Shown here: piece by piece, positions 30,980 through 48,747 of the stretch
How positions within the stretch are numbered: the first letter of the stretch is position 1
Layout of the letters: every line of letters starts with the position of its first letter
Origin: Terriglobia bacterium
Lineage (GTDB): Bacteria > Acidobacteriota > Terriglobia > 20CM-2-55-15
NCBI GenBank assembly: GCA_965198225.1
Contig: CBDAOY010000006.1
Span: 256,001-320,000, forward strand
Direction: 5' to 3'
DNA length: 64,000 nucleotides
Notes under the pieces: model-generated
Database searches by the model: none
What the model was told of the DNA's origin: nothing
What the model saw: the letters and a program-made list of their open reading frames with translations, nothing else
Program-made: the position numbers and the translations under genes

Positions 30980-33703
30980 TCATGGCACCGGCACCCGTTC
31001 CTTCAGTTCTTCGAAGAAGTTCTCGACCACGATGACCTCGGTCGCAGCCGCCTCGCCCTCGCCCTCGTAGGGGCGGACCATCAGGAACCGCTGATCATCT
31101 GACGTGATGTCGTAGAAGTTGTCGCCCGGGCTCACCTGATATCCCGCCGGTATGGTGAACAGCGTCTCCTGCGCCAGCACCTGCCCCGAGCCTGGATCGA
31201 ACTGGGCAGCCACCAGCCCACGGTCCTCATCCACGAAGAACAGCTCACGCCCGCTGTGCGCCCAGAGCGGCCCGAGCCCCCCGTCCCTCGAGACCCGCAC
31301 CCTGGCCGAGTTCACATCGGGGAGCGGACGCACGAACACCTCGTAGCTGCCTGTTTCGTTCGAACTGTACGCCAGCCATCTGCCGTCCGGCGACAATGCC
31401 GGCGCTCCCTCGGCAAACTCGGGTGTCGCCACCAGCGGTATGGCCGCGCTGTCCTCGCCCGGACGGAAAGCCAGGATGTCGCGCAGGCCAAGACCCACTG
31501 CCACGGTTGCCGCGGCGCGGAGCACGAGCCACTCCCCATCGGGACTCCACGACCCTTGGGCGAAGCCGCGCTCTTCGTCGAGCACCAGCACCGCTTCTCC
31601 CGTTCCGTCCGCACGCTTAGACCATACGGTCCCTTCGTTCAGGGGACCCGAAAAGTACGTCACGGTCTGACCATCGGGCGTCCAGAATGGCCTGATGTCA
31701 TCATCCTCGGAGAACGTGAGACGCTCCCGCGGTCCGTCGGGCAGGTGCTTGATCCAGATGTCCCGGTTGCCCTCAACCTCGGCGTTGAACGCCATCCGCG
31801 TCCCGTCCGGTGATAGCCTCGACCCGAAGTTGGTAGGGCTAACGAATGTCCATCCACGATCGACGGACGTCGCCTGGCCCGAGCGCGTTACCCAGACGAA
31901 CTCGGACTGGAGGGCCCCGCCTCCGGCCTGATACACGAGCGTGCCGTCGTCCGACAGCGCGAGGTGGACCGAACCGAGGGAGCGCACACCTACACCCTCG
32001 GTCAGCGCCACTGGGTCTCCCGCCAACTGCAGCCCGTCGTGGTCGAACGGAGCGGCCAGGAGCGTCCCGTCCGCCGTCACGTAGACCAGATGCCCCGACG
32101 CCGCGTAGCGGGCGAACACGCCGCGCACGAGGATCTCGTGCTCCCCGGTCTCCATGTCCGCTACCGCAATGTCGTGCTGGCTGACGTCGCCACTGGGCTC
32201 GTGGGCCACCGTGAGCAGCACGCCGCGACCGTTGGGGAGCGCCTGCGGCCAGATGTGACCCGTCTCGCTCTGTGCCGGGTCGAGCACGGTGAACGGCTCC
32301 ACCTCGCCGCTCGTCTCCGGCACGCGGACAAGAGCACTACTCCCTTGAGCCCGGAAGTAGATGTAGCCATCGGGACCCCAGGCGAGCCCCCCAACTCCAA
32401 CGCCACTCTCCACGATCGCCAACGGTGGCCCACCGCTCAGTGAGACCACGCGGACCCCGCCACCTTCGTGGAAGGCCACCCTCTGGCCGTCGGGAGACAA
32501 TACGGGGTTCTCCGCTCCCTCGGTGCCCGCGATGGGCGTCGCCTGAAGTTGATCACGTCGGCGTAGCCAGAGCTGTATGCCGCTCTGTTCCCCCGGACCC
32601 ACATAGACCATCTGAGTCCCGTCCGGTGAGACCGCGACGCTCGAGCCTCTGCCGTTGGCCCGCTGAGTGACAGGTAACTCGATGCTGTAGCGGCTGACGG
32701 GCCTCGCTTCCGGGGCCGAGGGACGGAGGAGCGACCAGGCGAGGGTCCCCGTCAGGACGGCGGCGACTGCAGCGAACGCAACCGCCAGCCGTTTCCACCG
32801 ACCGACGCCCGCAGGGACTCCAGTCCCATCGGCGGTCCCATGTCTGAACCCCGGATCAGCCATTACTTTCTGAATATCCACCCGAGCATCGGAAATGTCA
32901 CCGTATCGGTCTCTCGACTCCTTCTCCAAGCAACGATCCAGGAGCAGCCGAATGCGTGGATGCACGTTCGGCGGCAGGCTCTTCCAATCCGGTTCTCTCG
33001 CAAGCACTCCGGCAAGAACGTCGGACGCGGTGGGGCCTTCATAGACTTGCCGCCCGGTTACCATCTCGAACAAGACGCAGCCGAACGCCCAGATGTCGGC
33101 ACGCTTGTCCACTTCCTGCCCTCTCGCTTGCTCCGGAGACATGTACGCGGCCGTCCCGAGGATCACTCCCTTCTGCGTCGCCGCCATGCTCAGGGTCGGG
33201 GAGTTCGACAGGCTGGCATCGGCACCGTCGCCTATGAAGGCCTTCGCCAAACCAAAGTCCAGCACCTTGACCTTACCGTCGGGCGTCACCTTTATGTTGC
33301 CGGGTTTCAGATCCCGGTGAATCACACCCTTTTCATGCGCTGCTTCTAACGCCTCGGCAATCTGCAGGGCGAGTCTGAGGGATTCTTCGACCGGGATGGC
33401 CCCGCGCTTCAGCCGGTCCGCCAGCGTGTCGCCTTCGACCAATTCGAGGACAAGGAACCGGGTACCGTCGTGTTCTTCGAGGCCGTGGATCGTGGCGATA
33501 TTCGGGTGGTTCAACGAAGCAAGCAGTTTCGCTTCGCGTTCAAACCGGGCAAGGCGCTCTTCGTCCTTGGCGAACTCCTCGGGAAGCGTCTTGATAGCCA
33601 CCTGCCGGCCCAACTTCACATCCTGCGCCAGCCACACGGACCCCATGCCGCCCTGCCCGAGCTTGTCGGTGATCTCGTAGTGGCCGAGCGTCTTGCCGAT
33701 CAT
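30980..33703 (-). CDS. K4: Ser/Thr kinase - TM - beta-propeller receptor (recent paralog of K2)
   Basis: 907 aa intact ORF; all kinase motifs; ends ENFFEELKERVPVP. Confidence 0.93.
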   Translation of the reverse strand: MIGKTLGHYEITDKLGQGGMGSVWLAQDVKLGRQVAIKTLPEEFAKDEERLARFEREAKLLASLNHPNIATIHGLEEHDGTRFLVLELVEGDTLADRLKRGAIPVEESLRLALQIAEALEAAHEKGVIHRDLKPGNIKVTPDGKVKVLDFGLAKAFIGDGADASLSNSPTLSMAATQKGVILGTAAYMSPEQARGQEVDKRADIWAFGCVLFEMVTGRQVYEGPTASDVLAGVLAREPDWKSLPPNVHPRIRLLLDRCLEKESRDRYGDISDARVDIQKVMADPGFRHGTADGTGVPAGVGRWKRLAVAFAAVAAVLTGTLAWSLLRPSAPEARPVSRYSIELPVTQRANGRGSSVAVSPDGTQMVYVGPGEQSGIQLWLRRRDQLQATPIAGTEGAENPVLSPDGQRVAFHEGGGVRVVSLSGGPPLAIVESGVGVGGLAWGPDGYIYFRAQGSSALVRVPETSGEVEPFTVLDPAQSETGHIWPQALPNGRGVLLTVAHEPSGDVSQHDIAVADMETGEHEILVRGVFARYAASGHLVYVTADGTLLAAPFDHDGLQLAGDPVALTEGVGVRSLGSVHLALSDDGTLVYQAGGGALQSEFVWVTRSGQATSVDRGWTFVSPTNFGSRLSPDGTRMAFNAEVEGNRDIWIKHLPDGPRERLTFSEDDDIRPFWTPDGQTVTYFSGPLNEGTVWSKRADGTGEAVLVLDEERGFAQGSWSPDGEWLVLRAAATVAVGLGLRDILAFRPGEDSAAIPLVATPEFAEGAPALSPDGRWLAYSSNETGSYEVFVRPLPDVNSARVRVSRDGGLGPLWAHSGRELFFVDEDRGLVAAQFDPGSGQVLAQETLFTIPAGYQVSPGDNFYDITSDDQRFLMVRPYEGEGEAAATEVIVVENFFEELKERVPVP

Positions 33704-36330
33704 GGCACCGGCACCCGTTCCTTCAGTTCTTCGAACCAGTTGAGGACGATGTTGATAGGATTTGGTGAACCAGCTTCGATCAGCTGGCGGAAAAGGAAAC
33801 GATTGCCGTCCGGATGAACTGAGGGATAAGGAGAGGGCGGCATATCGAGCACCTCAGACGCGGAACCCAGCCGGCCATCTGCTCCGACGGGCACTGACAT
33901 CAGGGCTAGCTGAAGCTGGTCACTGTAGTACAAGGAATCGCCATCTGGTGACCAGGCTGGATTAGAGCCGCGTCCTCCAACCTGCAACGGACGACTTCGT
34001 CTGGGAAATTCGGAGAGAAAAATGGTCGCGCCAGTTTCGAGCCCAGCGCGATATGCGATCCGGTTTCCATCTGGCGAAAACTGCGCTTGGTACTCAGGAA
34101 ACGGCTGATCGGCAAACGCGGTGACCTGCCCCGTCTCGCGATCCAGAATCCAGAGATCACGCGATCCCGGATCACTCACCGTGTATGCGAGGTAACGGCC
34201 GCTGGGCGACCAGGACTCGGGTATAGGCGAGTTGGCGTTTTCGGGGAGCAGTTTCTCAGGAGGGACCAGGCTTTCAATGGACTGAGAATAGAGGCTATCG
34301 CCGTCCGTGATGGTAATCCGTTGTCCACCTGGCTCCCAGATTGGTCTCAAGGCAAATCCTGTTCGGAGGCCGGGTATTCGCAGCTGACTCTGAATACCCC
34401 TTTCCAGATCCATGAGATAGACCCCGTCTTGATTGGCGAGCTCGTAGAGTAGGGAATCCCCATTCGGAGAGAGCCGCGGTCTTGCCGCCGGAACCTCCAG
34501 CACGGCCGCAGACGTGACTCCGCTTTGGTCTGTCCAGACAAATCTCGGCTCGCCCCCAGAACCTGGAGTTCGCGCGTAGGCCAGGACACCGTCACGCGAT
34601 ACCGAAAAAGCCGCTCGACCGTTCGCGGCGAGAACGACATCGCCTGCCACCGCGATCGCATCTCCAGCCAACAGTTCTCCCCGCGTCGCGTCGAAAGCTT
34701 GCGCCAACAGGAACGAGTCTCGGACAAACAGCAGATGCCCTGGCTCGGAATATTGAGCCATCGACGCGGACGGCATAATGGCCCGCGGCGGCTGATCATC
34801 CAAGCTTCCGACGTAGAGGGTCCAGTCTGTGAGACCGTCAGTTCTCGACAGGTAGACGAATCGCCGACCGTCGGGAAGAAAGGAGGGCCATGTCTGAAGT
34901 ATTTCGCCCGGCGTCTCACCAAGATTCGTAACCGGCGTCGGCGCGCCGCCTGAAGCGGGAACACGCATGATCGGACCGCTCGGGTTCCGACCCCCGAAGA
35001 TGATCGTGCCTTGGTTATTCCACGAACCGCCCTGATCGCCCCTTGGTGCCTCGCTTATCGTGAACGCCGGGCCGCCTTCAAGATCCACCCTGCGAAGCTC
35101 CCCATCTGCAAAGAAACCCACCTGTTGGCTGTCGGGTGACCAGAAGGGCATGGTGGCGTTCTCCGTGCCCGGTATCGGAGCGGATTCGAGCGAATCCATC
35201 CGCCGCACCCACAGTTGGATGATGCCATCGGTCGTACCTTGGTAAACCAGGCGAGAGCCATCCGGCGATATGGCCATTCGGGGAGCGCCACCCCGACCGG
35301 CAAGGACTGTCTCGTCCGGCGGAAAGACCGAGAACTTCACTACGTTGTGCGCCGCTTCGGACTGATTGAGATAGAAATAGACGAGTCCAACCGCAAGGAC
35401 CACAGACAGGGTGGCAAAGGCCAGAGTAGCGGCGAACAACGGTCGCTCCCTGCCGGGGGTAGCGACTGAAACTTGTACTCCGCTTTCAATGTGGGACAGT
35501 TCGATCCTCAGGTCTCCCACATCGCGCCACCGATCACGCGGATCCTTTTCCAAGCACCGCAGAATCAGCTCCCGAACTCGAGGGTGCAGTTGGCTATGAA
35601 GTGTTGAGTAGTCCGGTTCCCGAGCCAAGACCGAGGCCATCACGTCCGACATCAACTCGCCCCGGAACGCCTGACGGCCTGTCAGCATCTCGTACAGCAC
35701 ACATCCGAATGCCCACACGTCAGCCCGCTTGTCGACTTCCTGTCCACGCGCTTGCTCCGGTGACATGTAAGCGGCAGTGCCAAGAATCACACCCTGCTGG
35801 GTTGCCGCCAGACTCAAGGTCGGTGACTGCGACAGGTTCGCGTCCGACCCGTCCCCCAAGAAAGCCTTCGCCAGCCCGAAGTCCAGCACCTTCACCTTCC
35901 CGTCGGGTGTGACCTTGATGTTCCCTGGTTTCAGATCACGGTGAATCACACCCTTCTCATGTGCTGCTTCGAGAGCTTCGGCGATCTGGAGGGCAAGTTT
36001 GAGGGATTCCTCGACGGGGATGACACCGTGTTTCAGCCGATCCGCGAGCGTGTCGCCCTCGACGAGTTCAAGGACGAGGAACCGAATGCCGTTGTCTTCT
36101 TCCAGACCGTGGATGGTGGCGATGTTCGGGTGGTTCAGGGAGGCGAGAAGTTTGGCTTCACGCTCAAACCGGGCCAGACGTTCTTCGTTCTGCGCGAACT
36201 CTTCAGGAAGTGTCTTGATGGCGACTTCCCGTCCGAGTTTGGAATCCCGCGCACGCCACACCTCGCCCATGCCTCCCTTTCCGAGCGGGGAGAGAACTTC
36301 GTAGCTGCCGAGTTGGGTGCCGGGGGTCAT
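33700..36330 (-). CDS. K5: Ser/Thr kinase - TM - beta-propeller receptor
   Basis: 876 aa intact; starts MTPGTQLGSYE, ends LNWFEELKERVPVP. Confidence 0.93.
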   Translation of the reverse strand: MTPGTQLGSYEVLSPLGKGGMGEVWRARDSKLGREVAIKTLPEEFAQNEERLARFEREAKLLASLNHPNIATIHGLEEDNGIRFLVLELVEGDTLADRLKHGVIPVEESLKLALQIAEALEAAHEKGVIHRDLKPGNIKVTPDGKVKVLDFGLAKAFLGDGSDANLSQSPTLSLAATQQGVILGTAAYMSPEQARGQEVDKRADVWAFGCVLYEMLTGRQAFRGELMSDVMASVLAREPDYSTLHSQLHPRVRELILRCLEKDPRDRWRDVGDLRIELSHIESGVQVSVATPGRERPLFAATLAFATLSVVLAVGLVYFYLNQSEAAHNVVKFSVFPPDETVLAGRGGAPRMAISPDGSRLVYQGTTDGIIQLWVRRMDSLESAPIPGTENATMPFWSPDSQQVGFFADGELRRVDLEGGPAFTISEAPRGDQGGSWNNQGTIIFGGRNPSGPIMRVPASGGAPTPVTNLGETPGEILQTWPSFLPDGRRFVYLSRTDGLTDWTLYVGSLDDQPPRAIMPSASMAQYSEPGHLLFVRDSFLLAQAFDATRGELLAGDAIAVAGDVVLAANGRAAFSVSRDGVLAYARTPGSGGEPRFVWTDQSGVTSAAVLEVPAARPRLSPNGDSLLYELANQDGVYLMDLERGIQSQLRIPGLRTGFALRPIWEPGGQRITITDGDSLYSQSIESLVPPEKLLPENANSPIPESWSPSGRYLAYTVSDPGSRDLWILDRETGQVTAFADQPFPEYQAQFSPDGNRIAYRAGLETGATIFLSEFPRRSRPLQVGGRGSNPAWSPDGDSLYYSDQLQLALMSVPVGADGRLGSASEVLDMPPSPYPSVHPDGNRFLFRQLIEAGSPNPINIVLNWFEELKERVPVP

Positions 36331-38965
36331 TGGTTAGCGAGTTCAGCGGTCCAGTTGACGATGATCGTGACCGGTGGTGGGTCCAGGCTCGGGCGGCGCA
36401 GCAGGAAACTGGCCCCGTCGCCGGTCACGGCATAGTGATGCCGACTGTCTATCAGCCCTGACGCCGCCGGATTAAAAACCGGTGCCACTGTGCCAAACTC
36501 CAGACCCGAGGAACCAGCATCCATACGGACCGCCATGAGGTTTGCGTCCCCACTGCCGCCCTTGTAGAACAGCTCCCTGCTGTCGTCCCTCCACCTGGGA
36601 TGGCTGCCTGGACCGTCGGAGACGCGTTGGCGGTCGGTCACGTCCGGGAACCGCGCCACGTAGATGCTATCCTCGCCGGATTCTCTCGAAGAGTAGGCGA
36701 CCCACTCCTCGTTCGGCGAAAAGTGAGCGGCACGCTCGGTATAATTCGGATCGTTGAAAAGCGGCCAGGGTTCGTCCCCGGAAACGGGCAACACCCAAAC
36801 GTCGCCGCTTTGATTGAACAGAATGAACTGTCCGTCCTGCGACCAGTCCGTGGGAAGCAGTGATCCGGTCCCCTCGGCAGCTTCCCAGAGAGGCTCGTCC
36901 TGGTCCGTACGGATGTTCTTCTTCCAGATACCCCACTTCCCGTTCCGGTAGGACTGATAGGCGATTTCCTGGCTGTTGGGTGACCAGACCGGGTCGGCAT
37001 CGAACGAAGGCGTTGACGCGAACCGCGAGGGAACACCCGTTCCCACATCGATCAACCAGATATCGACATTCCCGGTCGCTGGATCCTTGCGGTTCACCCC
37101 GATTTGTTGCCCGTCCGGTGACAGGGACGGGTTCAGATATTCGCCCGTCTGTGGCTGCTGAACCCGTCGGGTTTCGTTTCCGTCACGATCGAACCACACG
37201 AGTTGTCCGTCCACACGGTTCCCGGACCGAAACGCGAGAATACCGTTATTCGAAACCGAAAGCGGCATGTCATCCCCGGCATTGATCCCAGGAGTAGACA
37301 CCTGGGGACCGATTCGGCGGGCTTCTCCGTTGAGCTCCAGGCGATCGACGTCAAACGGCTGCGCCATCAAGACGCCCCCGCTCACGAACAGGATATGAGC
37401 GCTACCGAACACGGCCTTGGTGTTGCGGTCGGCGTTCAACAGAAGACGCGTTTCTGGGGATTCCAGAGACGCCAGGTAAATCGAAGACGGCTGAAGGCGA
37501 CCCCCGCCCCTCGAATAGAGGAAATGAATTCCGTCGGGAAGGAAGTGCGGGCGCCCGCCCTGCACTTCCAGCGTCAGCGGGACGGGTTGGCCGCCCGTCG
37601 CCGATACGCGGTGCAGGATCCCACTGCCACGGAAAACAATTTCCCCATCGGCGTTCCATGTACCGCCTCCAGCCGTGACCACAGGACAGACAATCCGGGG
37701 AGCCGCGCCGGAGAGATCCGCAACCCGGAGGTCTGTCGACGTGAAGAATCCTATGGACTGCCCATTCGGCTCCCAGAACAAAGATCTGACGGCACCCTCC
37801 GTACCCGCCAGCATCCGCATTTCACCCGACCCGCGTTCGCGGACCCAGACCGCCGGCCGACCGGTGGGTTCTGGCGCGAGGAATGCAATTCGTTCGCCGT
37901 CGGGTGAAATGGCCAGCACTTGTGCACGGGCCTCGAAGGGTTGGGGGAAGGAAAATCGGAAAGCCGTCTGCTCCGGGGGTGCGACGGAAAAATAAGCCAC
38001 GGCCAGGATCAGCGTTGCAATCAGAAGGACTCCAATTGCGGACCACAAGACAAGTTCACGGCCTTTTGATCGGGTTTCAACGGGGGCTGTTCCAACTTGT
38101 GCACTGCCATCTGTGATCCACTGCAACTCGCGCATCAGGTCGGCGGCGTTTTGACACCGATCTTCGGGATTCTTGGCGAGGCATGCCTTGATGACGTGAT
38201 TGAGCATGGGCGGCGAGACCGGCTGAACCTCAGTGACCGGCGCGGGCTGGTGGTTCATGATCGCCCCGACCAGACTTGCCTGACTCGCACCCTCAAACGC
38301 CTTCTTCCCGGTCACCATTTCGTACACGACCGCCCCGAACGCGAAGATGTCTGTCCGGGCGTCGGCTTCCTTGCCCTCCAACTGTTCGGGTGCCATGTAC
38401 TGGAGCGTGCCGATGATCGTTCCTTCGGCTGTGAGGGGTGCGGACGGATCTTGCGTGGGCATCTGCGAGAGTGGTGAGACCTCACCCGCTTCGCCCTTGA
38501 GCTTCGCCAGCCCGAAGTCGAGCAGCTTCACACCCGCCGACTTCGTCAGCATGATGTTGCCGGGTTTGAGGTCCCGATGCACGACGCCCTGCCGGTGCGC
38601 CTTGTCCAGCGCGTCGGCGATCTGGATGGCGTATTCGAGGGCCTGGTCGAGCGGGAGGCGTCCCTTCTCCAACCGCTGCTGCAGCGTGTCGCCCTCCACC
38701 AGTTCCATGACGAGGTAGTGAACGCCGTCCTGTTCCCCCACGTCGTGCAGATGTGCGGGTGGTTCAGACTGCTGACGGCCTTGGCTTCGCGCTCGAAGCG
38801 TTCCCGGCGTTGCGGGTCGGAGGCGAGGTGTTCGGGCAGGACTTTGATGGCGACCGTGCGCTCCAGGCGGGTGTCGGTAGCGCGATACACCTCTCCCATA
38901 CCGCCGGCACCGAGTTGGTCGGCGATTTCGTATGGACCCAGACGTGTGCCTGCTGCGAGCGACAC
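36327..38965 (-). pseudogene. K6: kinase-propeller receptor with a frameshift at HPHICT
   Basis: True start [14 protein letters not shown] (GTG 38965); frame changes at ~38745 where paralog K8 reads CTLHDIG; ends VNWTAELANQ. Confidence 0.87.
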
Positions 38966-39046
38966 GGGTTGCCTCCAAGTAAAGGCCGGCGGTCATAGAC
39001 CGCCGCTACAGAGCATCACTTCGCCAATTTGCTGAAACTTGCGTAA

Positions 39047-39393: not shown

Positions 39394-39669
39394 ATGCGGA
39401 AAATCCCGAGGATTGTACCTGTGACCGATCTCCGCCAGGATGCGGCATCGGTACTGGAGGAACTTCAGAAGGCTGACGAGCCCTGGATCATTACCCAAAG
39501 GGGGAGGGCCACGGCCGTCCTGCTCAACGTCGAGGCCTACGAGCGCTCGCAACAGGAAAACGAACTGCTTCGGCTCCTGGCGGTCGGTGAGAAGGAGATC
39601 GCCCAGGGGAAAGGGCACTCTCTTGATAGCGTGATGAAAGATGCAGACCGGCTGCTTCGGACAGACTGA
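39394..39669 (+). CDS. Phd/YefM-family antitoxin
   Basis: IVPVTDLRQDAASVL, IITQRGRATAVLLNVEAYE; GGAGGT RBS before ATG 39394. Confidence 0.9.
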   Translation: MRKIPRIVPVTDLRQDAASVLEELQKADEPWIITQRGRATAVLLNVEAYERSQQENELLRLLAVGEKEIAQGKGHSLDSVMKDADRLLRTD

Positions 39670-39672
39670 TCC

Positions 39673-39969
39673 GTGAGGGTTCGCTTCACCCCGTCAGCGC
39701 GGGAGCAATTCCTCGAAGGCCTAGAATACATCAGGAGGGACAATCCAGCAGCGGCCAGAAGATTTCGCGATCATGCCGAACGGATCCTCAAACGGCTGCG
39801 GGACTATCCAGAGTCGGGTCGTACGATTCCAGAGTTTCCGGAGCTACCACATCGGGAGCTCATTGTCCGGCCCTATCGCTTCTTCTATCGCGTAGAGAAA
39901 AAAACGGTTTGGATCGTTGCCGTCTGGCACGGCGCACAAGAAGTTGATCAACCCGAAAGTACCGTATAA
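39673..39969 (+). CDS. RelE/ParE-family toxin
   Basis: VRFTPSAREQ, YIRRDNPAAA, YPESGR, YRFFYRV, IVAVWHG. Confidence 0.9.
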   Translation: MRVRFTPSAREQFLEGLEYIRRDNPAAARRFRDHAERILKRLRDYPESGRTIPEFPELPHRELIVRPYRFFYRVEKKTVWIVAVWHGAQEVDQPESTV

Positions 39970-40062
39970 CAAGGCAATGAAGCTGCCAGTCCCGCGGTTT
40001 CACGGTCCGTGCGTGCGCACGTCTCACGCCACCTCGGCCTGCAGCTTATTGCCGATCCGTTA
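39964..40062 (+). other. attC site 1 (R' core split by the intron)
   Basis: R'' GTATAAC; L'' ggcaatgaagctgc pairs with L' gcagcttattgcc with one extrahelical base; R' GTTA|GAT restored when 40063-40868 is removed. Confidence 0.85.
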
Positions 40063-40868
40063 GTGCGCCAAGCGAAGCTTGGCGCTTCTTGCAGGGTGCG
40101 AGTCCCTGCGGAGAAAGGGTTAACCACCCACTCCTACCGAGTGTTGCAACTGCGACTGCGGAGGTGAAAGCCGAACAAGTCAGTTGAAGCGTACACAGGG
40201 AAGCATGCAGGCCGCAGGAGGGACCGCGACCTCCAAGGCTTGATACAGCCCCGTCATGGCGTTTGATGCAGACGGCGACGGTGTTAACGGTACCGGAAGC
40301 CAACACAGACGAACCGTTGTGGTGAGGTTCGCGAGGGTCTGCCGGGGTCCACCTTAGAGCGTGGCATGTATGCAGAGAAGCGTCAGGAACTTGGGAGACC
40401 CTGCGGGTTCCCGAGCTGAGACGCGATCGGAAACGACAGATCGCAGGGCATACGGCTAGTGAGCCCACACACGGGGAAACCCAGACCCAGGTAGGCCGGA
40501 GCCTAAACGAACTGGACGCCTGATCGACGACGGCCACGGGTAGACAGGCTCGACCAAAAGAAGAGCCATCGATGATTCGCAGGGAGTCAGATCCGCTCAT
40601 ACTACTCGGAGACGGTAGCGCCGATCACATGGGGAAGGGGCGGACAGAAGTACGTAGCTGGTACAGGAAACATTGTCCGGCGATGAAGGGCCGGAACAAA
40701 ACAATGCCAACCTCACTGCTGGCGATAGCAAAGAAGGCTGAGGAAAGGAAACATCCCTTTCTTGATGCTGGACGCGGAAGCGAGTACTTCTGAGGAGCCC
40801 GGTGCTGGAAAACGGCACGCCGGGATCTGTGCGGGGGCGGTTCGGGAAACTGGCCGTTCTACCGCGAT
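40063..40868 (+). ncRNA. Group II intron with internally deleted RT ORF
   Basis: 5' GTGCG; domain V gagcccggtgctggaaaacggcacgccgggatc (~40795-40827); domain VI ending ctaccgcgAT; only a stub MPTSLLAIAKKA of the intron-encoded protein remains. Confidence 0.88.
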
Positions 40869-40923
40869 GATTGCAGTCGCATTATCGTAAGAAGCAGGTT
40901 TGCCGTCTGTTAGACTTGGCGCA

Positions 40924-41152
40924 ATGACATCCGACGTCAAGAAACTCCTGGACGAAGCATTAAGGCTTCCAACGAGATGAAGCCCGGGCAGCACTGGCTG
41001 GGTCACTCATCGAAAGCTTGGATGAAGTCGTTGACGACGATGCCGAGTCGGCCTGGGCAGAAGAGATCCAGCGTCGAATTAGGGAGATCGAGTCGGGACA
41101 AGTCAAGACCGTGCCCTGGTCTGAAGCTCGCCGAATGATCATCGGGCAGTGA
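40924..41152 (+). pseudogene. Addiction-module antitoxin (TIGR02574-like), frameshifted
   Basis: MTSDVKKLLDEALRLP then, in another frame, EARAALAGSLIESLD...AWAEEIQRRIREIESGQVKTVPWSEA. Confidence 0.8.
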
Positions 41153-41448
41153 TGCCTGCTCAGCTCCGCCTTCATCCAGAGGCCGTCATCGAAGCACGGG
41201 CGGCCAGAGAATGGTACGAACATCGCAACCCGATTGCTGCCGAGTCCTTCATGCAGGAACTGGACCACGCTGTTGAGCAAGTCGGCCAATCTCCGAATCG
41301 TTGGCCGCGCCACCTGTACGGAACCAGGCGTTACCTACTGCATCGGTTTCCATTCTCAGTTGTTTACCGGAAGTCTGATGGCGTCATCGAAGTGCTAGCC
41401 GTGGCGCACGGACACCGACGCCCCGGATATTGGAAAGCTCGAACCTAA
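41152..41448 (+). CDS. RelE/ParE-family toxin
   Basis: LHPEAVIEARAAREWY, RRYLLHRFPFSVVY, VLAVAHGHRRPGYW. Confidence 0.88.
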   Translation: MPAQLRLHPEAVIEARAAREWYEHRNPIAAESFMQELDHAVEQVGQSPNRWPRHLYGTRRYLLHRFPFSVVYRKSDGVIEVLAVAHGHRRPGYWKART

Positions 41449-41639: not shown

Positions 41640-44348
41640 CTACGGCACCGGGACGAGGCGTTCGAGTTCGGTGAACCAGTTCTGGACGACGATGATTTCA
41701 GCTGACGGAGCCGCGCTGTCGCCGTCGATTGGCGCATCCTTAATCGCAAGGAACCGCAGACCGTCGAATGACACGTCATAGTTTCGCCCGACAGCAGCTG
41801 CAATGTTCTCCATGTACGGCCAGTCCATGAGCGACCTGCGGGCGTTCACGGAGAAGCCAGCCCCACCATCGTCTAGTGTGACGGCAATCAGTCTGCGAAC
41901 ACCACCAGCACCAGCAGGTTCAATATAGAAGAGTTCCCGCCCATCCCGTGACCAGAGAGGCTCGAGTCCCCCGGCGTTCGACACCAGGACGCGGTCGTCA
42001 TCCACGTTCGGAAACGGGCGGACGTAAATCTCGTATCGCCCGGACTCATCCGAGTCGTATGCCATCCAGCGGCCATTCGGCGACAACTCACCGTTCCGCT
42101 CGTTGAATGGCTCGCGCAAGAGCCACACAGGCTCCGCCTTGGCGTCCACCGAAATCATGCCGATGTTGTGACGAGTCTCCGGGTTGCTTTGCTCTCGGAA
42201 CACCAGTTCTGCGTCCGTCGGGGTGAAAAAATACGGATTGGCATCGGTGCTACCCGGTGCCCCGGGGTGCTCCGCAAGTCGTTCTGGACTGCCGGTGTTG
42301 TTCGCGGCCTTCCAATAGATGTCTCCACGGCTGCTGGAATACGCAATGCGTTGGTTGTCCCGCGTCCATGTTGGGTACCTCGCGCCAACCTCACCTACCG
42401 TCAGACGCGTCCGTGTTTCCAGCGTGAAGTCCCATATCCATAAGTCACTCACCTCGTTTCGGTTATCGAGGGCGACGCGGCGACCATCATGCGAGACGCG
42501 TGGATAGACGTACAGGCCCGGTTCGATGCCAACAACCTCTTCGCGACCCTCCCGGTCCACCCACACCAAAGTGCGGGGCGCAGCCTGCCCACCGTCCGCC
42601 GCCCGGTACACCAGCGAACCGTCCTCAGACATCCCGTAGTTCGCACTATCACCAACGAATGTCGCCCTCGCCAGTCCCTGTTCTAATGACACCGCTGTCC
42701 CGGAGGTTTCCAGCGTGTCTGGATCAAATGCGATCGCAAACAGGTCATTGCCCAGGGCGTAGATCAAATGTCCGGTCGGTGCGTAGCTGGCCGCGCTTCC
42801 GTTCCACACCACCGTTCGATCCTCGGTTGCGTCCAACGACGCGACGACGATTTCGCCGTTGTCCCACTGACCACCGGGAACTGCGGTGAACAGGATTTCC
42901 CGTCCGCTGGGCAGGAACGTGGGTCTGCCCAACTGTTCACCGTCCCGGGCGTCAATGATCCGTTCCGGCGTGCCGCCGTTGGCCGAGACGCTATAGATCC
43001 CGTCGAGTTGGGAAAAGAGAACGATGTCGTCCGCCCCCCAGCTAATTCCTATTGGATTCTCGGGGACAGGACCGATCGGAACCGGCGTGCCGCCATTGAT
43101 GGCGATCTTTTGGATCCGGCCCTCCCGGTTCCAGAAACCCACCCACTGGCTGTCGTGGGAGAAAAACGGGTTGGCCACACCAGGACCTTCGGTTCCTGCG
43201 ATCACGCGGGCTTCCAGATCGTTCCTGGATCGCAGATAGAGTCCACCGGTGCCGTTGTAGACATAGTATTGGCCATCCGGTGACACGGCGATGGTGTTTA
43301 CTCCGGCATATCTGAAGGCGATCCCCTCGGGGAGGTCATGCCCGTGGCGACTCACCGGACGGGGCGCTTCAGGTTTCAGGGTCCAGACGGCCACGCTGGC
43401 GATGACCAATCCAAGGACGAATGTTGCCACCCACGGCAGTTTCGATTGCGTTGCCACCTGAGCGATCTCGGCAACCGGCTGAACGATCACGCCACCGGCA
43501 TCGGCCAGCACCTTCTGAACATCCACGCGGGCGTCGGAAATGTCACCGTACCGGTCTTTCGATTCCTTTTCCAGGCAGCGTTCAAGGAGCAATCGGATTC
43601 TGGGATGGAGATGAAGGGGAAGGTTGTTCCAGCCGGGGTCCGCCCGGAGGACGCCGGCCAGCACATCCGACACCGTGCCTCCGTCGAACGTTCCCCGACC
43701 GGTCAACATTTCAAACAGCACGACACCGAACGCCCATACGTCAGCTCTCTTATCGACCTCCTGTCCCCTTGCCTGCTCGGGGGACATGTACGCTGCCGTG
43801 CCGAGAATCACGCCCTGCCGTGTGGCAGCCACACTCAACGTTGGGGACTGCGACAGATTCACGTCCGCCCCGTCACCCGCGAATGCTTTCGCCAGCCCGA
43901 AGTCCAGTACCTTGACCTTGCCCTCGGGCGTGACCTTGATGTTGGCCGGTTTCAGATCCCGGTGGATGACGCCCTTCTCATGTGCGGCTTCCAAGGCTTC
44001 GGCGATCTGGAGGGCGAGCTTGAGAGATTCTTCGACGGAGATCGCGCCACCTTTCAGTCGATCCGCCAGCGTGTCGCCTTCGACGAGTTCGAGGACGAGA
44101 AAGCGCGTGCCGTTGTCTTCTTCGAGGCCGTGGATGGTGGCGATGTTCGGGTGGTTCAATGACGCCAGCAGCTTCGCCTCACGTTCAAACCGGGCGAGTC
44201 GTTCTTCGTCCTGCGCGAACTCCTCAGGCAGCGTCTTGATCGCAACCTGACGCCCCAACTTGGCGTCCTGCGCCTGCCACACCGATCCCATCCCGCCCTG
44301 ACCGAGCTTGTCAGTGATCTCGTAGTGGCCCAGTGTTTTGCCGATCAT
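41640..44348 (-). CDS. K7: Ser/Thr kinase - TM - beta-propeller receptor
   Basis: 902 aa intact; MIGKTLGHYEI start, ends QNWFTELERLVPVP. Confidence 0.93.
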   Translation of the reverse strand: MIGKTLGHYEITDKLGQGGMGSVWQAQDAKLGRQVAIKTLPEEFAQDEERLARFEREAKLLASLNHPNIATIHGLEEDNGTRFLVLELVEGDTLADRLKGGAISVEESLKLALQIAEALEAAHEKGVIHRDLKPANIKVTPEGKVKVLDFGLAKAFAGDGADVNLSQSPTLSVAATRQGVILGTAAYMSPEQARGQEVDKRADVWAFGVVLFEMLTGRGTFDGGTVSDVLAGVLRADPGWNNLPLHLHPRIRLLLERCLEKESKDRYGDISDARVDVQKVLADAGGVIVQPVAEIAQVATQSKLPWVATFVLGLVIASVAVWTLKPEAPRPVSRHGHDLPEGIAFRYAGVNTIAVSPDGQYYVYNGTGGLYLRSRNDLEARVIAGTEGPGVANPFFSHDSQWVGFWNREGRIQKIAINGGTPVPIGPVPENPIGISWGADDIVLFSQLDGIYSVSANGGTPERIIDARDGEQLGRPTFLPSGREILFTAVPGGQWDNGEIVVASLDATEDRTVVWNGSAASYAPTGHLIYALGNDLFAIAFDPDTLETSGTAVSLEQGLARATFVGDSANYGMSEDGSLVYRAADGGQAAPRTLVWVDREGREEVVGIEPGLYVYPRVSHDGRRVALDNRNEVSDLWIWDFTLETRTRLTVGEVGARYPTWTRDNQRIAYSSSRGDIYWKAANNTGSPERLAEHPGAPGSTDANPYFFTPTDAELVFREQSNPETRHNIGMISVDAKAEPVWLLREPFNERNGELSPNGRWMAYDSDESGRYEIYVRPFPNVDDDRVLVSNAGGLEPLWSRDGRELFYIEPAGAGGVRRLIAVTLDDGGAGFSVNARRSLMDWPYMENIAAAVGRNYDVSFDGLRFLAIKDAPIDGDSAAPSAEIIVVQNWFTELERLVPVP

Positions 44349-46021: not shown

Positions 46022-46057
46022 GAGTTCGTAGCTGCCGAGTTGGGTGCCGGGGGTCAT
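46022..46057 (-). pseudogene. Kinase 5' stub (MTPGTQLGSYE)
   Basis: Identical to the first ~11 codons of K5 and K9 and coupled to the K8 stop by ATGA. Confidence 0.8.
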
Positions 46058-48747
46058 TGGTTTTCTTCGAGCAGAGAAATCCAGTTGAGGACGACCGTGA
46101 GTGAGGCCATCTCTCTCGACGTCGGACTCTCTTCGTCAGAAGCCGCGACGATCAGGAAACGCTGGCCATCGGTCGTGACAGCGTAATCAGCACTATTCGG
46201 GGTGTCAGTTGTACCAATGGGCATTTCGAATAGCGCGGTCGAAACGCCAGGTTCAAAGGTCCTATCCGCCCGGACCTCTACTGCCATCAATCTGCCGTCG
46301 AGTGTGAGATAAAACAGCTCTCTTCCATCCCCGCGCCACCGAGGGTGCCTCCCACCATTAATCGAAATCTGCCATTTGCCACCAGTTGCGGGAAATGGCT
46401 GCACGTACACTTCATCACGGCCGGATTCGTTAGAGGCGTAAGCGATCCAACGTGCGTCGGGCGAGAATCGCGCCTGAAATTCGTTGAATTCGGTTCGCAG
46501 GAAGACATAAGGCTCCGGATCCCTCTCCAGCGGCAACACCCATATATCGGCCCGGTTAGTGGCGTTGCCACGCTGATAGGCAAGGAAACGGCCGTCGGAA
46601 GACCAATCCATCGCAGAGAGAACGTTATCCTGCGAAAAGCCACTGGCATCCGCTTGAAGGAGCAGTTCGTCGTTGCCAGAACCAAAGGAGGTCTTCCGAT
46701 AAAGGCTTAACGGCCCATCCCGATTCGAGCTGAACACGATCCGGATCCCATCGTGGGACCAGATCGGCCGAGTTTCTCGTGCGGCGTCGAACGTGAAACG
46801 CGATGAAGCACCACGGTCCAAGTCCATCGTCCAGATGTCCCGATTTCCGGTCAGCGGATCTACTGACTCGAAAGCCAGTCGCTTCCCCTCGGGCGACAGT
46901 TCAGGGTTCGCGTAGGCACCCGGCGCACCGACTCTTGCGAGTTGCGTACCACTTCGATCGAACCAAACGAATTCTTCTAGGCCGGTATCGAACCCACCCA
47001 AATACACGAGAATTCCGTTCTCGGACGTCGAGAAATCTGCAACTCCGTTGGGACGGTTGACCACCTGTTCCGCGACAAGCGTCGGCTCGCCGGAAACCTG
47101 CATCTGCTCGACATCAAATGACTGGGCCATAAGTGTTCCGCCTCGAACAAACAGAAGGTATCCTGGGGGTGAGTACTCCGCTCTAGAAGCTGACCGAAGA
47201 AGCAATCTGGACTCCTGCGAATCCAGCGACGCCACGTAGACTCCCGAATTTTCCGAATCACTACTTCTTGCACGGTAAAGGAAGTGGCGACCGCCCGGTA
47301 AGAAGTGCGGGCCGACGTGGAGCAACTCCCCCCTGGAGGTGTCGAGATCCGTCACCGGAGTTGCCTGTCCACCCGATGAGGAGATTCGGTACAGGCGACT
47401 CTGATTCGTGAAGACGATGATCTCATTCCCGTTCCAGGTACCACCATAGAAAGGGTTCGCATCGGAAAGCGTTTGTGGTGGCCCGCCGGAGATCGCGATT
47501 TTTTTGAGTTTGCCTTGAGCGAAAAATCCGATGGAGCGGCTGTCGGGTGACCAAAAAGGGTAGGAGGCTCCCTCAGTTCCAGACAACACCTGAGCGGTAA
47601 CGGAATCGAGCGGGCGAATCCAGAGAAGGGTTCTGCCCTCAGATTGAGCCAGAAGAGCAACTAACCGTCCATCAGGTGACACGGCCGGACAAGTTCGGCA
47701 GGCGCCTGGCGCCCTTAATATCGCTCCTTCGGGCGCAGCAACGCTAAAGCGTACTGCCCTTGGTTCTTCCCAACTGCCAAGCACCACGACCAAGACAACC
47801 AGCACAGCGGTTGCCGCAATCCATGCGATCCGCTCTCGGCTTTTCAAACCAGTCTCGACGGGGCCGGTCTCGACAGACGCGCTGCCCTCGGTGACCCATT
47901 TCAACTCGTCCAGGAGATCACCTGTACTCTGCCAACGGCCGTCAGGATCCTTTGCCAAACACTTCTTCACTGTGCGATCCAGAGTAGTTGGGGAAATTGG
48001 CTGGAAATCGCTCACGAGTGGGGGCACGTCCTTGAGGATCGCCCCGATCAGGCTCGCCGGACTCGCTCCCTCAAACGCTTTCTTGCCCGTGACCATCTCG
48101 TAGACGACGGCACCGAACGCGAAGATGTCCGTCCGGGCATCGGCTTCCTTGCCTTCCAACTGTTCTGGGGCCATGTACTGGAGCGTGCCGATGATCGTGC
48201 CTTCAGCGGTCAGGGGCGCTGAGGGGTCCTGGGTGGGCATTTGGGACAGTGGCGAAACCGCACCCGCATCGCCCTTCAGTTTCGCCAACCCGAAGTCCAG
48301 CAACTTCGTCCCCGACTTCGTGATCATGACGTTACCGGGCTTAAGGTCGCGGTGTACGACACCCTGCCGGTGGGCTTTATCTAATGCGTCGGCGATCTGG
48401 ACGGCGTATTCCAACGCTTGGTCGAGCGGAAGCCGTTTCTTCTCCAACCGTTGTTGAAGCGTCTCGCCTTCCACCAACTCCATAACGAGGTAGTGCGTCC
48501 CGTCCTGTTCCCCGATGTCGTGGAGCGTGCAGATGTGCGGGTGGTTCAGGCTGCTAACGGCTTTGGCTTCACGCTCGAAGCGTTCCCGGCGCTGCGGATC
48601 GGAAGCGAGGTGCTCGGGAAGGACCTTAATCGCGACGGTACGCTTCAGGCGGGTATCAGTGGCGCGATACACCTCTCCCATACCACCGGCGCCGAGTTGA
48701 TCGCCGATTTCGTATGGGCCTAAGCGTGTTCCTGCCGTGAGAGCCAT
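46054..48747 (-). CDS. K8: Ser/Thr kinase - TM - beta-propeller receptor
   Basis: 897 aa intact; [24 protein letters not shown] kinase subtype, ends LNWISLLEENQ. Confidence 0.93.
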   Translation of the reverse strand: MALTAGTRLGPYEIGDQLGAGGMGEVYRATDTRLKRTVAIKVLPEHLASDPQRRERFEREAKAVSSLNHPHICTLHDIGEQDGTHYLVMELVEGETLQQRLEKKRLPLDQALEYAVQIADALDKAHRQGVVHRDLKPGNVMITKSGTKLLDFGLAKLKGDAGAVSPLSQMPTQDPSAPLTAEGTIIGTLQYMAPEQLEGKEADARTDIFAFGAVVYEMVTGKKAFEGASPASLIGAILKDVPPLVSDFQPISPTTLDRTVKKCLAKDPDGRWQSTGDLLDELKWVTEGSASVETGPVETGLKSRERIAWIAATAVLVVLVVVLGSWEEPRAVRFSVAAPEGAILRAPGACRTCPAVSPDGRLVALLAQSEGRTLLWIRPLDSVTAQVLSGTEGASYPFWSPDSRSIGFFAQGKLKKIAISGGPPQTLSDANPFYGGTWNGNEIIVFTNQSRLYRISSSGGQATPVTDLDTSRGELLHVGPHFLPGGRHFLYRARSSDSENSGVYVASLDSQESRLLLRSASRAEYSPPGYLLFVRGGTLMAQSFDVEQMQVSGEPTLVAEQVVNRPNGVADFSTSENGILVYLGGFDTGLEEFVWFDRSGTQLARVGAPGAYANPELSPEGKRLAFESVDPLTGNRDIWTMDLDRGASSRFTFDAARETRPIWSHDGIRIVFSSNRDGPLSLYRKTSFGSGNDELLLQADASGFSQDNVLSAMDWSSDGRFLAYQRGNATNRADIWVLPLERDPEPYVFLRTEFNEFQARFSPDARWIAYASNESGRDEVYVQPFPATGGKWQISINGGRHPRWRGDGRELFYLTLDGRLMAVEVRADRTFEPGVSTALFEMPIGTTDTPNSADYAVTTDGQRFLIVAASDEESPTSREMASLTVVLNWISLLEENQ

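Follow-up and report, generated by a model that had tools for sequence, protein, structure and literature searches.

A sense-strand, ORF-less class E-like group II intron within the R' core of an attC-like site in a Terriglobia genome

A 64,000-nucleotide stretch of contig CBDAOY010000006.1 from a Terriglobia bacterium (hereafter the window, to which all unprefixed positions refer) carries a complete group II intron that lacks an open reading frame (ORF) and lies within the R' core of an attC-like integron recombination site, on the strand that is sense with respect to the cassette genes. The intron is class E-like, and its placement is a variant of a known association. Integron cassette sites have been thought to be invaded by a single intron lineage, IIC-attC, on the antisense strand, and the sense-strand cases in print amount to an oddity or to broken fragments only. 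To these we add the exact insertion point, GTTR/RRY (a slash marks a junction throughout), a pairing rule in which an exon-binding site 1 (EBS1) loop of the UAACGN type (UAACGG here) recognises NCGTTA, and evidence that derivatives lacking an ORF both form and move. The result is a simple annotation signature for an element missed by gene callers and a compact ribozyme of natural origin whose DNA target is a defined 6-nt sequence, and it makes the effects of such introns on cassette excision and expression in chromosomal arrays testable.

The intron starts with GTGCG and finishes with GAT (...CGAT). Its 5' junction falls at 40062/40063 on the + strand (...CCGTTA/GTGCGCC..., that is GCCGATCCGTTA/GTGCGCCAAGCG) and its 3' junction at 40868/40869 on the same strand (CTACCGCGAT/GATTGC..., or in a longer form GTTCTACCGCGAT/GATTGCAG). 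The match of its domain I to RF02005 was the only gathering-level Rfam family in the whole 64-kb window, and a permissive Rfam scan of 39900-41000 also placed RF00029 (domains V and VI) at 40793-40868, where the 41.6 bits obtained exceed the gathering threshold of 40. The latter match terminates precisely at the proposed 3' end of the intron. An A faces the AGC-triad G in the lower helix of domain V. This state is common to 19 of 19 aligned relatives, among them the Sinorhizobium meliloti intron L173, a presumed class E element, indicating a trait of the lineage rather than damage. All the parts of a group II ribozyme are thus present, from GTGCG and domain I through the domain V triad to the bulged A of domain VI and the GAT end. 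The original prediction, which had been made from the window sequence, gave the same boundaries, the same retained 5' end and the same domains V and VI, and its observations are correct on every point.

Domain IV holds the only trace of a gene for the intron-encoded protein (IEP), a reverse transcriptase (RT)/maturase, within the window intron. This is a stub of 29 codons, in agreement with the stub of about 30 codons predicted earlier. Its first 12 residues, MPTSLLAIAKKA, are those of the N-terminus of the 436-residue IEP of a full-length relative. Compared with full-length elements, the window copy is missing approximately 1.27 kb of ORF, in a stretch that runs from the first IEP codons to the last ~105 nt of the intron. 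Contigs from three public sequencing runs, belonging to three studies, span both window junctions with zero differences, and public-run contigs from other insertion sites have only CCGTTA in common with the window upstream of the intron.

Removal of 40063-40868 rejoins GTTA and GAT to an R' core, GTTAGAT, that fits GTTRRRY perfectly, as the original prediction had stated. The intron-free site (39964-40062 joined to 40869-40871) is a 102-nt imperfect palindrome that sits directly behind the cassette ORF and is enclosed by R'' and R' cores. With R'' and R' constrained to pair (AAC with GTT), the top strand folds at -19.5 kcal/mol. Under the same constraint -19 kcal/mol was reached by 17 of 600 random CGTTR sites of the genome, which places the site in the top 3%; a threshold of -9 kcal/mol was non-discriminating, since 186 of the 600 pass it. 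The unconstrained folds gave -23.3 kcal/mol for the bottom strand (z = -3.3 against 300 shuffles) and -20.5 kcal/mol for the top strand (z = -2.6). Two bases, 39979 (G) and 39987 (C), are extrahelical; they are 7 nt apart, both in the R''-L'' arm, and the bulge farther from the R box is a G on the bottom strand. Published descriptions of folded bottom-strand attC sites place a pair of extrahelical bases on the same side; in the structure of the Vibrio cholerae repeat (VCR) these are T12'' and G20'' (PMC3053210). The bulge positions, the + strand phd/parE genes and the stop codon within R'' identify the + strand as the attC top strand. The intron is consequently co-oriented with the cassette genes, at a position other than that used by IIC-attC introns, and on both counts the prediction is borne out.

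Selection of the site was followed through exon-intron pairing. Junctions were gathered from this genome, from 60 related genomes (16 with matches, this one included) and from the best 80 of 551 IEP matches in a search of genome contigs, with intron ends set by nhmmer. Exon sequence of 8 nt or more was available for 56 junctions; 51 of these had an alignable loop, four short contig-end fragments and locus L143 having been dropped from the comparison. At least six bases of the exon end are paired with the intron's own EBS1 loop in 37 of the 51, against 318 of 2408 non-cognate combinations. Introns with other loops have other targets, for example CAAUUU with AGATTG and UAGUGU with ACACTA. This covariation between EBS1 and intron-binding site 1 (IBS1) confirms both the boundaries and the targeting mechanism, and in the window intron UAACGG pairs with CCGUUA. 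Pairing of a second loop, EBS2, with the L' arm is suggested: against exon positions -9 to -13 it forms runs of 5, 8 and 6 in the copies of this genome, the loop being altered in the decayed one described below.

Among the junctions, 29 of 56 have GTTR at the exon end. The first base of the 3' exon, where known, is G in 17 and T in 6 of 23, and a full GTTRRRY is restored in 12 of the 22 junctions with three known 3' bases. Many of the target exons are textbook attC hairpins behind cassette-like genes (L079, L070, L121, L130, L134 and L141). A related case on a plasmid of Catenovulum adriaticum (L169; NZ_CP109966.1, 176141-183225) consists of the 5' part of an intron. It is preceded by GGCGTTA, with which an attC-like hairpin ends; this hairpin comes after a BrnT/CopG pair, and further toxin-antitoxin (TA) pairs are close by. 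An IS30 element separates this intron part from a downstream Phd/RelE pair, and a maturase-only fragment lies upstream.

A second and a third ORF-less copy, 98% identical, are present in the same genome (C8:78632-79436 and C5:569679-570483), both inside a duplicated 5-kb segment with 97.6% identity. The approximate limits of this segment are C8:76519-81514 and C5:567602-572597, with the intron copy in the middle of each. A fourth, decayed copy of 2291 nt (C6:1003531-1005821) has kept its IEP from the YADD motif to domain X only. The insertion sites in this genome read CCGTTA/GAT twice and CCGTTG/GGC once. The decayed copy occupies a good attC, with GCCCAAC as R'' and GTTGGGC as R' (-20.7 kcal/mol). 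No consistent strand bias with respect to GC skew was seen around the four copies. Because the same deletion derivative, at 98% identity, occupies two unrelated sites, we infer that it moved after the loss of its ORF and would have needed an IEP acting in trans, which supports the trans mobilisation suggested in the original prediction. In genome G059, from another family, full-length and ORF-less copies occur together and the break points are nearly those of the window copy. The ORF-less copy of G059 shares 92.5% identity with the full-length copy of its own genome and only 74% with the window copy, indicating that the deletions arose independently. A copy in G026 had also been considered as ORF-less and was rejected, as its sequence continues into the ORF.

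We consider it likely that the window intron is a non-autonomous deletion derivative of a class E-like intron that lacks an endonuclease and homes by EBS1 to GTTR/RRY. The ancestor would have entered between the fourth and fifth base of the R' core, at a site picked mainly by the 6-bp pairing of EBS1 (5'-UAACGG) with the exon (5'-CCGTTA), with a contribution from the first exon base, G (IBS3), and perhaps from a weak interaction of EBS2 with IBS2 in the L' arm. Since the IEP has no endonuclease, cDNA synthesis would require priming by the host, as in other endonuclease-minus introns. Loss of ~1.27 kb of the RT/maturase gene would have left the ribozyme complete and the beginning of domain IV in place, and the ORF-less form would then have reached at least one further site by means of an IEP supplied in trans. 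Co-transcription with the cassette genes could continue, as the intron is oriented in sense, has a TA operon on either side and disrupts no ORF.

Several observations weigh against this account. The duplicated C8/C5 site is a poor attC, folding at -7.6 kcal/mol, no better than random CGTTR sites, so that it may be the 6-nt motif, and not attC itself, that the intron follows. No intact cognate IEP was found in the assembly, which is 97% complete. Within this genome P0001, the IEP of the full-length relatives that we used as a stand-in because the window copy has none, is matched best by a C-terminal remnant covering residues 239-424 at 76% identity and by six intact IEPs that belong to a different family and are 37% identical to it. 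The helper IEP appears either to have been lost or to fall within the unassembled 3%, and the window copy is probably stranded. EBS2-IBS2 runs of at least five were found in 7 of 24 GTTR sites, 8 of 22 other sites and 240 of 2044 non-cognate combinations, a weak enrichment; one of the regular-expression placements of EBS2 misassigned several rows. The enrichment led us to withdraw a reading of 'no IBS2' that had been drawn from the unconserved positions -7 to -13. The assignment to class E, set out below, derives from the inventory of one plasmid and from elimination, with a reference that is 41% identical. Splicing at 40062/40869 is a prediction; the RNA runs listed among the public data contained a share of 0.06-0.08 of the sequence words. 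No contig joining 40062 to 40869 was found in four public runs, contigs being uninformative on splicing. An allele with an empty site was likewise not seen in the contigs of these four runs, in which rare empty sites would be undetectable.

The poor fold of the C8/C5 site, indistinguishable from that of random CGTTR sites, is also what would be expected if the intron homed to any CCGTTR DNA through IBS1, and perhaps IBS2, with attC structure irrelevant and GTTRRRY cores merely common there. Consistent with this, changes in EBS1 alone track retargeting, and attC-like sites ending in CCGTTA or CCGTTG stand unoccupied in the genome. A quick maximum-likelihood tree was computed from 64 IEPs (61 loci and three from the other intron families of this genome, omitting IEPs below 400 residues and identical copies). 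In this tree all GTTR-targeting introns fall into one clade of 44 rows, with a Shimodaira-Hasegawa-like approximate likelihood ratio test (SH-aLRT) value of 94. Introns with GTTR and with other targets are interleaved in the clade, with nine changes most parsimonious and at least six forced by well-supported branches, and this too fits homing to the motif. Against it, the genome offers 21,776 CGTTR sites and yet two of the three independent insertions lie in hairpins of the top 3%, and most GTTR junctions from other phyla end clear R''...R' palindromes behind cassette-like ORFs. We therefore regard homing without regard to attC structure as unlikely, although it is the most serious of the competing explanations.

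The clade was seen in Acidobacteriota, Chloroflexota, Bacillota, Pseudomonadota, Planctomycetota and other phyla. The interleaving in the tree suggests that attC targeting is either old in the clade and frequently lost or was gained several times. We tentatively raise the possibility, which we would not yet call probable, that the ancestral homing site of the clade is the R' core of attC on the sense strand, and that its members have repeatedly retargeted by EBS1, shed their ORFs and persisted as sense-strand passengers. If so, the clade would mirror the IIC-attC lineage, with mini-introns mobilised in trans. Its introns would travel as 5' leaders of downstream cassettes, just 3' of the crossover, and could splice from cassette transcripts, making them tolerated and undescribed passengers of chromosomal arrays.

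The original prediction had further proposed a role for the host, in which the intron blocks recombination at this attC and fixes the TA cassettes in place; a related possibility is that it insulates or drives the downstream TA operon. The insertion does split the R' heptamer and is fixed at the locus in the contigs of the three runs from three studies, and IIC-attC introns have been reported to influence cassette expression (PMC3001079). However, the point of entry is 3 nt 3' of the G/TT crossover, so that the crossover point and GTT are intact; GTTA followed by the first G of the intron preserves GTTAG, and the four TAAC/GTTA pairs of the R box are unchanged. The only integron integrase gene lies approximately 193 kb away (C6:488798-489706, - strand; TIGR02249, 446.5 bits). 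In a heuristic scan of the surroundings of both TA pairs no other convincing attC came to light, including one that would bound the downstream pair. There is thus probably no array to lock, and the locus is best described as one attC with a TA operon on each side. In addition, the downstream antitoxin gene is frameshifted in the assembly, and the other copies occupy unrelated loci, as expected of a selfish element. A host function of this kind is improbable in our view. Were the integrase IntI to act here, the intron would accompany the downstream cassette as a 5' leader.

The class of the intron was assessed from the ribozyme and from P0001. This protein of 436 residues contains the Pfam domains RVT_1 and GIIM only, has no DNA-binding/endonuclease (D/En) domain and ends ~35 residues past domain X. 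It is about equidistant from four group II RTs of the IIC, IIA and IIB types in the Protein Data Bank (PDB), scoring 127 bits with GsI-IIC, 154 with 7uim (which we take to be the E. rectale IIC element), 142 with LtrA and 131 with 6me0. The IEP of Kl.pn.I3 on pIMP-1495, which is labelled IIC-attC (PMC5027574), scores 418, 389, 137 and 116 bits with the same four. P0001 and the Kl.pn.I3 IEP are 31% identical, the Kl.pn.I3 ribozyme is matched by RF02001 and RF01998 and not by RF02005, and ~640 nt precede the ORF here compared with ~455 nt in Kl.pn.I3. A known IIC or IIC-attC intron in an unusual top-strand orientation, as in Enterobacter cloacae, is thus highly improbable, even though the best PDB match of P0001 is the group II RT/maturase 7uim and the short IBS1, the upstream hairpin and the absence of an endonuclease domain would all suit one. 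The same labelled references led us to reject our own first reading, held with good confidence, as class C, and they agree with the earlier statement that the lineage differs from IIC-attC.

The inventory of the S. meliloti plasmid pRmeGR4b lists a class D copy and a disrupted class E copy (PMC5894124), and we found exactly two introns on its record. The class D copy, of the RmInt1 type, has an intact IEP with the exact motif LRKLARENPGLFVHW and a ribozyme of family RF01999, and its IEP matches P0001 at 35% identity and 172 bits. In contrast, the disrupted (frameshifted) copy matches RF02005, as the window intron does, with 145.4 bits, and P0001 at 41% identity and 242 bits. A copy on S. meliloti pSymA also matches RF02005 (194.8 bits). 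The C-terminal motif of class D, LX3AX3PXLF[V/A]HW (PMC4615759), was found in none of the 80 IEPs of relatives examined (the best 80 of 551 matches) with two substitutions allowed. We call the intron class E-like on account of its ribozyme type and its nearest labelled IEP, and, judged from sequence comparison with labelled references of classes C, D and E, beside which classes F and g1-g4 are also recognised (PMC3552965), it probably belongs to class E, as had been tentatively guessed. The pSymA intron L173 was dropped as a class D reference because its IEP is without the class D motif, and a second pSymA match, L182, is 5'-truncated and unlabelled.

The closest published case is that of H.ha.F1 and H.ha.F2, class E (IIB) fragments in a TA-rich cluster of attC sites lacking integron integrases (CALIN) of Halorhodospira halochloris (Sonbol and Siam 2021, PMC7923331). 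They resemble the window intron in having decayed, endonuclease-less class E-type IEPs and in lying on the cassette strand of TA arrays, behind attC or attC-like hairpins. They are 5'-truncated, such that neither an insertion point nor EBS-IBS pairing could be stated for them, whereas the window intron has a complete ribozyme, a GTTA/GAT junction, a pairing rule that extends across its clade and a clean ORF deletion that appears to have moved in trans. IIC-attC introns such as S.ma.I2 and Kl.pn.I3 also home to attC beside a DNA hairpin with a short IBS1 (PMC3001079, PMC5027574). They differ in their class C IEP and IIC ribozyme, and their insertion point is R'' (TTGT/T) of the bottom strand, with an orientation opposite to that of the cassettes (PMC3001079, PMC7923331), in contrast to the top-strand, sense insertion of the class E-like intron at R' (GTTR/RRY).

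A top-strand, sense insertion into attC was described in 2012 in Enterobacter cloacae, as cited in PMC7923331, and was reported as class C. Our search of 72,556 plasmids with the ribozyme DNA gave two weak matches, neither of them enterobacterial. UHB.I2, a IIB1 intron of the chloroplast-like 1 (CL1) type located just downstream of an attC (PMC7923331), is likewise non-IIC, in cassette orientation and adjoining attC; it differs in its CL1 IEP, its unusual termini (UUGCG..GU) and its position, which is past the core and not within it. According to a review, ORF-less introns of bacteria are almost always accompanied by a related intact IEP (PMC4424553). The window intron resembles these trans-served elements in its lack of an IEP gene, its intact ribozyme and its several copies, and differs in that its cognate IEP is represented by a C-terminal remnant alone. 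Full-text literature searches returned nothing further on sense-strand, non-IIC introns in attC. The coordinates of the intron, its pairing elements, the attC-like site and the adjoining genes are collected in Table 1.

Table 1. Features of the intron-bearing attC-like site and its flanking genes in the window
Feature	Position	Strand	Evidence or remark
phd/yefM-type antitoxin gene, upstream cassette	39403-39669	+	Pfam PF02604, 57.6 bits
parE-type toxin gene; TAA stop 39967-39969 within R''	39673-39969	+	Pfam PF05016, 64 bits
attC-like site, 5' part: R'', L''/L' stem, 5-nt spacer, GTTA of R'	39964-40062	+	
R'' GTATAAC	39964-39970	+	one mismatch to RYYYAAC
Possible IBS2, TGCCG	40050-40054	+	pairing suggestive
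IBS1, CCGTTA	40057-40062	+	complement of EBS1 loop, 6 bp
First four R' bases, GTTA	40059-40062	+	
ORF-less group II intron, class E-like (IIB-type)	40063-40868	+	806 nt; sequence, Rfam, other copies, public contigs
Domain I core	40099-40361	+	Rfam RF02005 (group-II-D1D4-6), 118.2 bits, gathering score 49
Candidate EBS2, AUGGCG	40256-40261	+	pairing suggestive
EBS1 loop, UAACGG, in a domain I hairpin	40285-40290	+	covariation with exon
IEP gene remnant in domain IV, ATG 40704 to TGA, 29 codons and stop	40704-40793	+	
Domain V, AGC triad	40795-40827	+	RF00029, alignment of relatives
Domain VI, bulged branch-point A at 40861	40830-40868	+	sequence, RF00029, alignment
Last three R' bases, GAT; G 40869 is IBS3	40869-40871	+	
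Downstream TA pair, Unstab_antitox antitoxin and parE-type toxin (41149-41448)	40924-41448	+	Pfam

Paralogous Ser/Thr-kinase/PD40 genes of the opposite strand lie on both sides of the islet formed by the TA genes and the intron. Six - strand ORFs of ~880-910 residues, three of them head to tail, lie at 22022-24745, 30980-38996, 41640-44348 and 46054-48747; the two that adjoin the islet, which were the two scanned, encode Ser/Thr protein kinases with PD40/beta-propeller C-termini. The frameshift in the Unstab_antitox antitoxin gene (40924-41152) is near 40974, where the contigs of three public runs have four bases fewer, which would restore a single antitoxin frame. The four extra bases may thus be either a real insertion or an assembly error.

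The ORF of the distant integrase gene ends just past the catalytic tyrosine, ~11 model positions short, and a heuristic scan of C6:486000-520000 gave a single attC-like candidate near intI, within 30 kb. The same heuristic scan applied genome-wide returned 285 scattered matches, which is too permissive for counting, and it was used for single sites. An unoccupied, repeated palindrome of ~90 nt (GCCGAACGGCG...CGGCGCCGTTGGGC) ends in the intron-preferred CCGTTG/GGC, with copies at C1:16052, C4:432932, C5:44340, C6:190383 and C7:703200. An attC-like site ending in CCGTTAGGC is located ~2.5 kb from the decayed intron copy on C6.

Domain IV of that decayed copy contains an insert of ~905 nt (C6:1004372-1005286), which is itself another ORF-less group II intron. 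It starts with GTGCG, has a domain V-like hairpin near its end and finishes with CTCTAC, and Rfam gave no call for it at E<=0.01. At least 11 near-full-length copies with 92-100% identity, in addition to partial ones, were found on contigs C4, C5, C6, C7, C8 and C9, and copies occupy domain IV of several intron families, forming twintrons. A second intron family, with an IEP of ~450 residues that is 37% identical to P0001, is nested in domain VI of another intron in four places, starting a few bases past domain V (C5:606877-606955, C5:812424-812502, C6:839719-839797 and C5:760132-760210). Across the genome we counted 31 GIIM, 34 RVT_1 and 23 RF02005 matches.

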